Shown one piece after another: positions 45,001 to 51,000 of a stretch of 64,000 nucleotides of DNA (positions are counted from its first letter, which is position 1; the number at the start of each line of letters is the position of its first letter). The stretch is from a virus (Duplodnaviria; Heunggongvirae; Uroviricota; Caudoviricetes): the IMG/VR virus record IMGVR_UViG_2718217885_000009. The stretch is one strand, 5' to 3'. The position numbers were made by a program.

Positions 45001-48000
45001 GTATCCAGTCCCGATCAGCATCACAGTACTGCTCGGGCATAACCGTTTTGATTTGCCTGTTCACTCACACCTCCGATGGGCTGTGTGTCCAGGATTAATC
45101 ATCGCCTCTTACGAACGCAGGGAACGGACGAACCTCTTCCGCCTCAACTGTGCCGTCATCAAAGGTTTTGACGTATATTTCTCGTCCGACGAGAAGCGCT
45201 TTACTGATTGCACTCTGCGCCACGCCAAAGTCCTTAGCGGCTTTCTTTTGGCCGAACCTGTATACGTAATCAGCCAGGGTCTCTTTTTTCATCGCCATAA
45301 CTGACTCCTTCAAAATGCCCATATCATTACGCACAGTTATTAAAATGTCAACACCGCAGATATTTCATTACATATAACCAAAGGTGATATGGTATGAACA
45401 TGAAAAAGAAACCGTTAACCCCTGAGCAACTGGAAGACGCCAAGCGTCTGAAAAGTATTTTTAACGCTAAAAAGAAAGAGTTAGGCCTGTCGCAGGAATC
45501 ATTAGCCTATGAATTAGGTGTTACCCAAAGCGCTGTTAATCAGCTAATGGCTGGCATCAACGCCATAAATGCCAGCCACGCAGCACAGCTTGCTAAGATA
45601 CTGAATGTAAAGGTCGGAGATTTCAGTCCCAGCCTGGCAAAATCTATTGCAGAAATGGCGCTCGCAATTGAAGAGCCATTAACTCGTGTCCCCGCTTACG
45701 AATATCCGTTACTCTCCTGCGTACAAGCTGGCGCATTCTCAATGGATGATATTTCGTACACCGCAAAAGATGCGATTAAATGGATCTCCACCACCACAAA
45801 AGCCAGTGACAGGTCGTTCTGGCTGGAGGTCAAGGGGCATTCAATGACCGCACCGCAGGGTGGTAAACCCAGCTTCCCTGAAGGTATGCTGATACTCGTT
45901 GACCCTGAACGGGAAATCGAGGATGGCGATTTTTGCGTGGCCCGAATGAACGGCGATGAATTTACCTTCAAACGATTCATTCGTGAGAGCGGTAAAGCGT
46001 ACCTGGAGCCGCTCAACCCACGATTCGACATGATTGAGTGTAACGAAAACTGCCAGTTTGTCGGAAAGGTCATCAAATCGCAGTGGAATGATGAGACTTT
46101 TGATTGAGCTCACAGAGTGATTTGACATCCTTCACGCCTGAAGAATGTGGAGGATGTCAAAAGCACGTTGGCATCATCATGCCACGTAAAGAGGATTAGT
46201 TATGCTTCAAAAGCTAGACGTCGCAGACAGCGTGCGTCGCGAGCTGTCTCCCCGTACCGCGCGTAAACACAAAGCAGAGTTCGGCCAGTTCATGACGCCT
46301 TCTGGCGTGGCCCGTTTTATGGCCTCCTTGTTTCCACCGAGCACAATGAAAACTTGCCGTCTACTGGACGCAGGCGCTGGTTTAGGCGCACTGTCTTGCG
46401 CCTTCCTCGACCGTTGGCTGGTTGGCGAGTTTGGCTTTGAGTCTGTCGAGGCAACAGCCTACGAAATCGACAAAAAGCTGTGTGGTCACCTTGCGAAGCA
46501 CTTAACCGGGTACAGGAGAGTGACGCCCCGCATCATCGAAGGGGATTATATTGAGCTGGCAACCGCCGAAGGTCTACAGGATCGAGGTTATACCCATGCA
46601 ATACTTAATCCGCCTTACAAGAAGATCAATAGCCAGTCAGCCCACCGGCAGGCTCTTCGCACTGTCGGTATCGAGACGGTAAATCTGTATTCCGCCTTTG
46701 TTGCACTGGCTGTAGGTGAGGTTGCACCTGGCGGGCAGATAGTGGCCATAATCCCACGTAGTTTCTGCAACGGACCGTATTACCGTCCGTTCCGTAATTT
46801 CATACTTGAGCGGGCAGCAATCCGCCATATTCATTTGTTCGAATCACGTAGCAAAGCTTTCAGGGATGACGATGTGTTGCAGGAAAATATTATCATCCGC
46901 CTGGAGCGTGGAGGCCGTCAGGAGGCTGTTACAGTCACAACTTCGACCGATGATAGCTTTTTTGACCTAGTCACCTACGAACACCCATTTGACCAGATTG
47001 TGTACCCGGACGATTCGGAGCGGTTTATTCATGTGCCGACCACGCTCGAGAAAAGCACCATTGAGTTATCATCTGCCGTACAATGTTCGCTGGCTGATAT
47101 TGGCGTGAAGGTATCGACCGGACCGATAGTTGATTTCCGACTGAAAGCTCATTTGCGCAGCATGCCAGAAGAAGGAACTGTTCCCCTGATCTACCCGAGC
47201 CATTTGAGTATGAGTAGCACTGTCTGGCCTGTGGAAGGTTTGAAGAAACCCAACGCAATCATGCGCAACGACGAGACAGAAAAGTGGCTTTACCCGAACG
47301 GTTTTTATTGTGTGGTGCGTCGTTTCTCGTCGAAGGAGGAAAAGCGCCGAGTGGTAGCAAGCGTCGTTGATCCTGCTACCTTCAGTGAGTATTCAGTGTT
47401 GGGATTTGAAAATCACATGAACGTGTTTCATGAGAACAAACATGGGTTACCCGAGGCGCTGGCCCGTGGCTTGGCCGTGTTCCTGAACACTACCGCAGTG
47501 GATAAGTATTTCCGTCGCTTCAACGGGCATACACAGGTCAATGCAACCGACCTCAAGATGATTAAGTACCCAAGCCGTGACACTCTGATAGAGCTTGGCA
47601 AGTGGGCTATGCAACAAGAAACTCTCACGCAAGAACATATTGACGCTAAGCTAGGAGCTCTGACTGCATGAACAACCAAAATGATTATATTGAGGCCGCT
47701 CAGCAAATTATAGCATCCTTAGGCCTGCCCAGAGCGCAGCAGAATGAGCGTTCTGCTTTGTGTTTGCTGGCACTCCTGAACCTCACACCGGGAAAAGCAT
47801 GGGCCGACGCGGAAAATCCGCTTGTGGGCATTACACCAATCATGAATTGGGTTCGGGAGCACTACGGCAAGGTCTACGCACCCAATACTCGTGAGACATT
47901 CCGCCGCCAGTCTATGCATCAGTTCTGCGCTGCTGGAGTAGCCCTCTACAATCCGGACAAGCCCGATCGCCCAGTGAACAGCCCGAAGGCTGTTTATCAG

Positions 48001-51000
48001 ATCGAACCTGCTGCTCTGTCCATGCTACGCACTTTCGGCAGCCCGGCATGGCACGATAGCCTTGCAACCTATTTAGCCGAGCGTGAAACGCTGGTTACCC
48101 GCTATGCTAAGGAGCGCGAACAGAATCGTATCCCTGTTGAAATTGCTGCGGGCCAGCAAATAACCCTCAGTCCCGGCGAGCACAGCGAACTTATCCGTGC
48201 CATAATAGAGGACTTCGCCCCACGTTTTGCTCCGGGTAGCGTGCTGGTCTATGCTGGCGACACTGGCGAAAAGTGGGGCTACTTCGACGCTCCACTGCTG
48301 GCCGGGCTAGGTGTTGATGTGGATTCACACGGTAAAATGCCAGATGTGGTGCTACATTTTACTGCGAAAAACTGGCTGCTACTGGTTGAGTCTGTCACCA
48401 GTCATGGACCGGTTGATGGGAAGCGGCATGCTGAGCTTGCCAGGCTGTTTGCCGGATCAACAGCCGGACTTGTCTATGTGACCGCTTTTCCAAATCGCTC
48501 CATCATGGGGCGATATCTTGGTGAAATCGCATGGGAAACAGAGGTATGGGTGGCTGATGCACCTTCTCATCTTATTCACTTCAACGGAGTGCGATTTCTT
48601 GGCCCCTACTCTACTGAATGAGAACAGGACCAGATAAATAGCCCGGCCCATGCGCCGGGTTTTTCTTTGCATATCCCCTCCTGTTATCTGCCCCCTTAAA
48701 AAATAAATCACTTTAAAAATCAGTTAAGTAATAATTTCTCGCCCTTAAAAAGCACCAACGGTATTTACATGAAAATCACCGCAAGTTATATTTATTTCAA
48801 GCCAGAAACATCGCGCCCTTACACAGGGCTACATAAATCAGTCGTACGGCGCGACTTAACCCGCCGCAAAATGCTCTTTAACAATCTGGAGCTTTACAGC
48901 GTCAATGACCTGTTTAGACCCCTACACGTAAACGTGCTGTATCATCGGGTGCGATCCGGTCGATGAGAGAGTATCCCCGCGCGAGAGCGAGAACGGCGTG
49001 AGAACGGGCAACACTGGCAGGAAGTTGGCGCTGACCAATACAGGGAATGTTTTGGGGTGCAGGCGGCACCGCCAAAGCGTTTCTGAGAAAGAACGGTATT
49101 GACTGCGTGTGATGTCGGGGCTATATTTGGCGAACACCTCATAAAACGGGTGTCGGGATTGCTACCCCGCTGACAATCGAGGCGATACAGACGCGCCAGC
49201 GTCTTTTTTTGTATCGACATACACGCACATCTTATCAATGGTGGGCTGTATGGGGCCGACTTCGGTCGGGCTGGTTCCCTTGATTGCCAGTTGTAGCAAC
49301 CCTGTACAGTCCACCGCCAGCGAGCTTGCTACCTCCAGCGGTGGTTATCAATCACCAATCAAGGAGGCTGCCATTATGGCTACTATCCCAGTCCTTTCTC
49401 AACCTGAAATCACCATTTCCAATGGTCGCGCTGTTACTACGTCCTTTGCCGTTGCCGAATATTTTTGCAAGCGACACGATAACGTATTGCGCGCCATTGC
49501 AAATATTGAATGCTCAGAGAAATTTAACGCCCTCAATTTTGAGGACGTTACCTACACCGACGCCAAAGGCGAACAACGCCCAATGTACCAAATCACCAAA
49601 AACGGCTTCGTTTTTCTGGTGATGGGCTTCACCGGCAAAAAAGCAGCTGCATTCAAGGAAGCCTACATTGCTGAATTCGATCGCATGGAAAAACAACTAT
49701 GGGAACAGAAACAACTGGCCCTGTCTTCTCCTGCGATGAATATCAATTTCCCTTTGTCGTGGTTTTCAGAGCATCACCCCTACGCCACGATGAACTATGT
49801 TGATCGCAAGGTTATCAGCCTTGATGCTTCCGTGCTCTTCGATATGCCAAGCCCAACTATGCGCATCCTCAATGAGCTACACAGCAAAGGCTATAACGTT
49901 GACGCCGCTGTCGCCGAATTTAACGCCTTCAAGCATCTGACGGAAGAAATGCGCCGCACGCTACAGGATATTTCAAGACTGTCAGATCGAAATTCCCGAA
50001 AAGGCTTCTCGTTAAGTCTTTAAAGAACAGATCGTTTGACAATGCTGCATTAACGGGGATATATTCTGCCTCATGGTGCTCAAAACACCTTAGCAAGTAG
50101 CGGTTACCGCGCCCGACAGACATGCGGTTTTTTTGTGTCCAGTCTTCTTGGTTTATGACCGGGCGTGCGGCTAATACAATACCAGCAATGGGAATATGCC
50201 CGCCGACTACTTGCGGTTTTGAGCGCCCGGTCACCCTCTCAAAAGGGGTAAATCAAAATATCAAGTAGGACGCAAAGCATGAAAACCATCTCCGTGGAGT
50301 CCCTCTCCATAATTTCATTTAGTAATATACCTGTGGTGACTACAGAGCTTCTTGCCAGCTTATATGGCACAGAACCAGATTACATCCGAAAAAATTTCAA
50401 TCGGAATTCTGGACGATTTGTTATCGGTAAGCACTACTTTTTACTTGAGAATGAGGAGTTGCGGGAATTTAAGCACAGCATGTCTTTAAGACCTTCTGTG
50501 AAAATCGCCCGTAACGTTCGCTCCCTCATCCTCTGGACAGAACGCGGCGCAGCCCGTCACGCAAAAATGCTCGAAACCGATCGGGCGTGGGAAGTGTTCG
50601 AAAAACTGGAAGACTGCTATTTCAGTCAAAAAATCCCAGAACAACTTCAGCTTCCAGAATCAACGCTATCTATCAACTACCCTCTCTCGTGGTTCTCAGA
50701 TAACCATCCCTACGCCACGATGAACTATGTTGATCGCAAGGTTATCAGCCTTGATGCTTCCGTGCTCTTCGATATGCCAAGCCCAACTATGCGCATCCTC
50801 AATGAGCTACACAGCAAAGGCTATAACGTTGACGCCGCTGTCGCCGAATTTAACGCCTTCAAGCATCTGACGGAAGAAATGCGCCGTAAATTGCTGGATA
50901 TTTCCCGTACATCAGAAAAGTCTTCCCGCTTTGGTTTCAACGTAAATCTTTAATTAACCCCATCCCCGACCACATATCGGGGATTAAATTAAATATCTGG

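Follow-up and report, generated by a model that had tools for sequence, protein, structure and literature searches.

EcoGIII, a type IIP restriction-modification system found in Eru1-type Shiga toxin phages: a probably plasmid-derived cassette in a cargo slot within the immunity region, most likely read from the repressor promoter

A restriction-modification (R-M) pair located directly behind the repressor gene of a temperate phage raises two questions, neither of them surprising to specialists, namely whether a repressor promoter could drive the gene of a toxic nuclease and how a newly formed lysogen would survive it. We have analysed such a pair in a 64,000-nucleotide stretch of caudoviricete DNA (IMG/VR record IMGVR_UViG_2718217885_000009; hereafter the window), in which an earlier note made from the sequence had described a PstI/BsuBI-family pair, a methyltransferase (M) followed by an endonuclease (R), downstream of the repressor gene cI. 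All the elements named in that note are confirmed to lie where it had placed them (Table 1). We are highly confident that the region corresponds to the EcoGIII type IIP R-M system of Eru1-type Shiga toxin (Stx) phages (P13374, TL-2011c, phi191), a horizontally acquired cassette with its closest relatives on plasmids, which sits in a cargo slot within the immunity region and is most likely read through from the repressor promoter.

The identity of the pair follows from nucleotide comparison. Positions 45300-48800 of the window are identical to P13374, P13363/68/53/57 and phiON-2011 (3501/3501 nucleotides, nt), and an identity of at least 95% is observed with 97 further records of Stx1a-, Stx2- and Stx2a-converting phages, 74 of which reach at least 99% (98 phage records in all); TL-2011c, phi191, Ss-VASD, PA2/PA8 and VT2phi_272 are carriers within this set. 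Most of the phage records label the two genes as 'modification methylase BsuBI/PstI' and 'type II restriction enzyme BsuBI'. Since the pair is identical to that of P13374 and EcoGIII has been published, it is already known biology, EcoGIII of the Stx2a phage of the 2011 Escherichia coli O104:H4 sprout outbreak, and not new: the element of the outbreak phage (phiStx104 / P13374) is the same, with no difference of substance. The note had pointed to a CTGCAG-specific R-M system reported on an O104:H4 Stx2 phage, which is borne out exactly by the complete nt match with P13374 and phiON-2011 and by the literature. At the protein level R is identical in 316/317 residues to the draft protein of strain C227-11 (P0096), and at least 1000 public contigs encode R without any change, while the R-M pair is found in 140 of the 5426 complete E. 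coli genomes, being chromosomal every time. A comparison with P13374 over 15.5 kb evidences near-identity, with a single indel within the first 1 kb and differences in the last 1 kb, away from the R-M pair; as the window thus differs slightly from P13374 outside the R-M region, the strain behind it may be another carrier of the phage. The published comparison of phages of enteroaggregative haemorrhagic E. coli (EAHEC) and the papers on Eru phages leave the R-M pair undiscussed.

The composition of the pair agrees with this identity. The genes cI, M and R lie on the plus strand, with a spacer of 94 nt from cI to M, and the stop of M and the start of R overlap as ATGA, with an AGGAG motif 10 nt 5' of the R start; a methyltransferase and a translationally coupled endonuclease of 317 residues had indeed been proposed, and both open reading frames (ORFs) and their overlap are present. 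In M, motif I (LLDAGAGLGA, residues 54-63) precedes motif IV (NPPY, residues 136-139) and a long C-terminal part follows, so the protein is of gamma architecture; it matches the Pfam Eco57I methylase domain (3.3e-9) and, across residues 1-489, the PADLOC model MTase_II (5e-248). For R, Pfam returned an N-terminal helix-turn-helix domain (BsuBI_PstI_RE_N, PF17728, 1.2e-54, residues 7-143) and a catalytic domain (BsuBI_PstI_RE, PF06616, 4.6e-61, residues 155-307), and PADLOC REase_II matches the full length (1.6e-168). The Eco57I and BsuBI_PstI_RE models to which the note had pointed therefore find their respective proteins, and the endonuclease-family match whose absence for 47668-48621 would have spoken against the assignment is present. 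Thus, both endonuclease domains, a PD...E core and an adjacent cognate gamma methyltransferase, as in the type IIP PstI/BsuBI family, are found together. The two domains are shared with PstI of Providencia stuartii and BsuBI of Bacillus subtilis, and the CTGCAG specificity is alike according to the literature. With respect to gene order, M and R are here in tandem with overlapping stop and start, an arrangement seen in most relatives, whereas the genes are divergent in a relative on a Photobacterium plasmid. The genes of the PstI system are likewise divergent.

The matches listed in a large protein search with R are near-identical E. coli sequences, among which neither distant relatives nor an entry named PstI or BsuBI occurs, and the distant relatives for the comparison of residues were taken from plasmids. 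R aligns end to end with the structure of SdaI (PDB 2ixs; 1e-77), an enzyme that recognises the 8-bp sequence CCTGCAGG. Residues P225, D226 and E241 of R are invariant in 7 sequences, SdaI included, at identities down to 35%, and the block AWETE (288-292), H301, H304 and N306 are likewise invariant among the relatives compared. SdaI and R differ in the column of SdaI K251, which is a Thr in R (residues 241-244, ESVT; 48388-48399) and a Thr or Ser in the five plasmid relatives compared. We regard this as a family trait, and not as a defect of this copy of R. If K251 is catalytic in SdaI, as we take it to be, PstI-type enzymes must draw the lysine function from elsewhere.

The activity of the pair is documented in the literature. 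The primary description of EcoGIII is that of Fang et al. 2012, and functional statements on EcoGIII are here taken from three papers citing it (PMC6602927, PMC3893438, PMC4288162). In two O111 lysogens every CTGCAG site carries N6-methyladenine (m6A; 2390/2390 and 2434/2434), the methyltransferase there being 99.7% similar to M.EcoGIII (PMC6602927), and in O145 a CTGCAG methylation of 98.8% was observed exclusively in the strain that carries the pair on its Stx2a prophage (PMC3893438). Lysogen DNA unmethylated at this site had been named as an outcome that would speak against the assignment, and these data show the opposite. The R gene in O145 is 100% identical to the C227-11 copy, which the relevant passage of PMC3893438 refers to as 'shown to be biochemically active'. 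In the summary given by PMC6602927, EcoGIII was 'shown to methylate and cleave CTGCAG', guards against other lambda-like phages, influences growth and affects 1,951 genes in C227-11; cloned EcoGIII in recipient cells reduces the entry of conjugative plasmids (PMC4288162). On the strength of this literature we assign CTGC-m6A-G methylation and CTGCAG cleavage to the pair. The methyltransferase would place m6A on CTGCAG and the endonuclease, a homologue of SdaI and PstI, would cut CTGCAG sites devoid of methylation, in such a way that a lysogen would methylate all its own sites and restrict unmethylated incoming phage and plasmid DNA. Avoidance of CTGCAG is not seen phage-wide, the 64-kb window having 16 sites versus 18 ± 3.8 expected. 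All 16 lie in 5459-42304, and the last 21.7 kb (42305-64000), which cover the replication, immunity, R-M, recombination and integration genes, are free of them, with a Markov expectation of 4.3 sites and a gap test P of ~0.02, a marginal and post hoc value.

The position of the pair in the phage genome was assessed from operator-like sequences. The 17-nt sequence ATCACCN5TTATAT has two exact matches in 64 kb, at 45372-45388 (minus strand), in the cro-cI spacer, and at 48775-48791 (plus strand), the latter overlapping the promoter-like TTTACA-17-TATATT; a pR-like site, TTGACA-17-AATGAT, is found at 45351-45323. We interpret the first match as OR and the second as OL/pL. On that interpretation the R-M pair would occupy the immunity region in the manner of lambda rexAB, because the operator-like sequence has no exact copy other than those in OR and at the promoter-like site that follows the terminator. 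The 'rex position' claimed in the earlier note is upheld by this placing and by the different genes that sister prophages have in this slot: as with rexAB, the pair is on the cI strand, between cI and an operator-bearing putative leftward promoter, with a terminator at its end. In lambda, rexAB is co-transcribed with cI from the repressor promoter pRM, the transcript ending at tIMM, and the terminator found here may be seen as the analogue of tIMM. Both rexAB and the R-M pair are defences expressed in the lysogen against other phages; however, the proteins are unrelated, as are the mechanisms, abortive infection by Rex versus restriction. Furthermore, Eru1-type phages differ from lambda in having no homologues of N, CII and CIII, and form very unstable lysogens (PMC8044961, where the cI product is the 'Eru1 repressor').

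The limits of the cassette were established by comparison with its nearest relatives outside phages, namely the R-M pairs carried by IncP-6 and further small plasmids from Aeromonas, Pseudomonas, Citrobacter, Serratia and E. coli. These have ~84% nt identity to the phage copy over M and R, and 92-95% amino acid identity in R. The homology begins at ~46160, immediately after an inverted repeat that follows cI, and ends ~14 nt past the R stop (~48635); the cassette therefore spans ~46160-48635, and we take it to be horizontally acquired. In plasmid pKAM376_4, M begins 9 nt after a serine-resolvase gene, and the 41-nt phage leader therefore corresponds to the last ~30 nt of such a gene plus the 9-nt gap, being a relic of the resolvase 3' end. 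The plasmid cassettes have the M/R overlap of the phage but differ in the resolvase gene upstream and in an extra ORF of 82 codons after R. This ORF is conserved 17 nt after R with its own ribosome-binding site (RBS; 4980-5228 in plasmid locus L002, 4875-5123 in L003), matches nothing in Pfam or PADLOC and has no counterpart in the phage; on the plasmids it may provide the system with a third component.

The elements on both sides of the cassette belong to the phage backbone. A perfect 10-bp inverted repeat had been noted between cI and M; the repeat is real, but it is longer, with arms of 15 nt (46121-46135 and 46147-46161) that pair perfectly over 11 consecutive positions and contain a single G-T pair. 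The corresponding RNA folds into a stem of 16 bp, and for the intergenic region (101 nt) the z score is -3.6, with 0/200 shuffled sequences folding as well. A role of the repeat as terminator is ruled out, as there is no U-tract after the hairpin on either strand. The intrinsic terminator that had been placed after the pair was recovered, with a stem of 8 pairs at 48640-48661, of which 6 are G-C, and the T-run TTTTCTTT behind it. The hairpin is missing from the plasmid copies of the cassette, and its stem is kept, with the apical part changed, in prophages STEC1585, with other cargo, and G8, with a remnant of R (-25 to -37.5 kcal/mol); the plasmid homology stops before the terminator, which together with its downstream sequence is conserved in STEC1585, a prophage without the R-M pair. 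Since the plasmid cassettes do not have the hairpin and prophages devoid of R-M do, it is a backbone element, and the conservation in STEC1585 places the terminator in the backbone as well. Therefore, the sole palindrome upstream of the pair is not part of the cassette.

Between these two borders the cargo varies (Table 1). The cI end and hairpin are found in 147 complete E. coli genomes versus 140 for the R-M pair, and prophages with other cargo have the same or nearly the same cI. Given that such prophages hold different genes between the borders, hairpin and terminator flank an exchangeable cargo slot, which looks like a hotspot for defence or accessory genes. The cargo protein of STEC1585 has no Pfam or PADLOC match.

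How the two genes are expressed depends on the sequence between cI and M. On the plus strand of this interval no sigma-70-like site is found at the standard threshold, and a lenient scan yields two weak 8/12 matches versus a background of 1.8 per 350 nt; the impression in the note that a separate promoter is not obvious thus holds. Read-through from pRM ending at the terminator at 48640 is most likely, by analogy with lambda, and it is the most economical reading since there is no promoter above background, only 41 nt of upstream sequence came with the cassette, and the hairpin has no U-tract. The evident activity of M in lysogens agrees with it indirectly. A promoter of its own is unlikely in the leader, as 41 nt are too short and these are a relic of the resolvase 3' end. 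The lysogen would then have a cI-M-R message in which R is translated by coupling to M. Three points weigh against this reading: one of the weak matches (ATGTCA-15-CATCAT, 46154-46180, 8/12) is located at the cassette junction, the hairpin between cI and M (-29 kcal/mol) could attenuate read-through even without a U-tract, and transcription of the Eru1 immunity region may differ from that of lambda. Indeed, the establishment scheme of lambda is not transferable as such, because Eru1 phages are without N, CII and CIII. The delay of the nuclease at establishment would rather come from a lower output of R by coupled translation and from the need of R to dimerise, with no controller protein involved.

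Two other explanations of this interval were considered. The R-M pair could be an independent unit, with a promoter at the cassette junction or in the 3' end of cI and with the hairpin terminating or insulating the cI transcript. The strong hairpin immediately after cI, the weak -35/-10 match that spans the junction and the expression of the same cassette in quite different plasmid contexts are consistent with it, but the lack of a U-tract on either strand and the promoter counts at background level are not; moreover, on IncP-6 plasmids the short distance from the resolvase gene to M suggests read-through expression there too, and we consider an independent unit unlikely. Far less credible still is that the inverted repeat (46121-46161) is an operator of the R-M system, bound for instance by the methyltransferase or by a controller so as to delay the nuclease. 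The repeat sits just 5' of M, and several type II systems are autoregulated via palindromes near their promoters; however, all plasmid cassettes are without the repeat, their homology starting right behind it, it is present in same-cI prophages without R-M (STEC1585) or with only the R remnant (G8), and the cassette has no controller-type ORF. We have rejected this explanation as largely refuted by the plasmid and prophage comparisons. In agreement, the pair does not belong to the class with controller (C) proteins: no ORF is found between cI and M, and none between M and R, as these overlap. Under the preferred reading, pRM read-through, the hairpin may act in RNA processing or in protection and stability of a 3' end, letting the levels of cI and cargo differ.

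A further matter is the role for which the pair is maintained. Its main selected role could be stabilisation of the prophage, by post-segregational killing upon loss, or epigenetic reprogramming of the host, rather than defence. Type II R-M pairs generally act as addiction modules. In favour of this possibility are also the marked instability of Eru1 lysogens (PMC8044961) and the change in ~1900 transcripts and in growth upon EcoGIII removal that is reported in the summary of PMC6602927. Restriction of lambda-like phages (in the same summary) and of conjugative plasmids (PMC4288162) is nevertheless documented, and the cassette decays naturally, G8 retaining just a 100-residue fragment of R; the three roles are in addition mutually compatible. 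All considered, a precedence of stabilisation or reprogramming over defence seems rather doubtful. Similarly tentative is a proposal for the Eru1-type Stx phages in which hairpin and terminator serve as conserved 'docking' borders of an exchangeable slot for defence genes, the hairpin, as an element of RNA processing or stability, uncoupling the levels of repressor and cargo on one pRM transcript and R-M being tied to lysogeny; we hold this to be possible, with the balance inclined against it.

Table 1. Features of the immunity region in the window, and contents of the corresponding slot in sister prophages
Sequence	Feature	Positions	Strand	Evidence or content
Window	cro	45095..45334	-	Pfam Cro 4.8e-34; cro in P13374 annotation; divergent from cI
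Window	OR region (putative), cro-cI spacer	45335..45393		operator-like near-palindrome 45372-45390
Window	cI repressor	45394..46107	+	Pfam Peptidase_S24 9.5e-29, HTH_3 8e-10; LexA-like; cI in P13374 annotation
Window	inverted repeat / RNA hairpin, phage backbone, left edge of cargo slot	46121..46161	+	repeat search and RNA folding
Window	R-M cassette leader	46160..46201	+	small hairpin GGCATCATCATGCC, RBS AGAGGA; alignment with plasmid copies
Window	M.EcoGIII, gamma-class N6-adenine DNA methyltransferase, 489 aa	46202..47671	+	ORF, motifs, Pfam, PADLOC
Window	R.EcoGIII, BsuBI/PstI-family type IIP endonuclease, 317 aa	47668..48621	+	ORF, Pfam, PADLOC, SdaI alignment
Window	intrinsic terminator, backbone element and probable end of cI-M-R unit	48640..48669	+	terminator scan; kept in prophage STEC1585
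Window	promoter-like TTTACA-17-TATATT, candidate pL/OL (putative function)	48764..48792	+	promoter scan; operator match 48775-48791
STEC1585 (L005)	cargo	3750-4487		245-aa protein between same hairpin and same terminator
UCPROB-001 (L011)	cargo	3905-6025		small membrane protein, SDH Clp-fold serine protease, HicAB
G8 (L012)	cargo	4038-4340		100-aa R fragment only
Lys12581Vzw, E2863 (L004)	cargo	8108-8958		additional SocA/Panacea pair, preceded by hybrid cI, same hairpin and R-M pair

Several other features of the prophage were observed. Directly 5' of an ORF with a Rha domain, Rfam identifies the Hfq-binding small RNA (sRNA) IsrK (49134-49209, 61.8 bits) and a C4 antisense RNA (49234-49321, 77.4 bits), and an isrK unit agrees with the promoter-like site located at 49099-49127 and with the terminator located at 49189-49204. 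As the annotated start of the Rha-domain ORF (49238) overlaps the C4 RNA, its translation probably begins at the ATG at 49376, which has the RBS AAGGAGG. Taken together, 49099-49321 looks like a P1/Gifsy-type module of small RNA and antirepressor beside the putative pL. The adjacent ORFs 49238-50023 and 50279-50953 have unlike N-terminal domains (Rha and ORF6N/KilA-N-like, respectively) and a near-identical C-terminal stretch of ~85 residues (PLSWFS..HPYATMNYVDRKVISLDASVLFDMPSPTMRILNELHSKGYNVDAAVAEFNAFKHLTEEMRR), a C-terminal module that is duplicated between these antirepressor-like proteins. Three plus-strand copies of sRNA-Xcc1 (Rfam, 65-80 bits) are located in the early-left region, at 50157-50240, 58447-58536 and 58986-59071. 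On opposite strands, at 37715-37974 and 39383-39631, the anti-stx2 sRNA AsxR (88 bits) and STnc100 (208 bits) were detected, with three transfer RNA genes nearby, all of which are known features of the stx2 late region. The replication module (42672-44192 and upstream) is of the non-lambdoid Eru1 type, with the DEAD-box helicase Eru1A among others, and not of the lambda O/P type, in agreement with the published classing of TL-2011c and the O104:H4 phages as unstable Eru1 lysogens.

The published effects of this system comprise complete CTGCAG methylation in lysogens of highly virulent Shiga toxin-producing E. coli and EAHEC, restriction of phages and plasmids and, according to the summary in PMC6602927, large transcriptome shifts upon its removal. 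What the present analysis adds is small and architectural, in that a cassette appears to have been captured from a plasmid-type resolvase-M-R setting into a bounded slot of the immunity region that elsewhere holds alternative genes. Were the 'docking' proposal true, the R-M pair would be switched off at induction and loss of the prophage would be penalised, which would help an unstable Stx prophage to persist.

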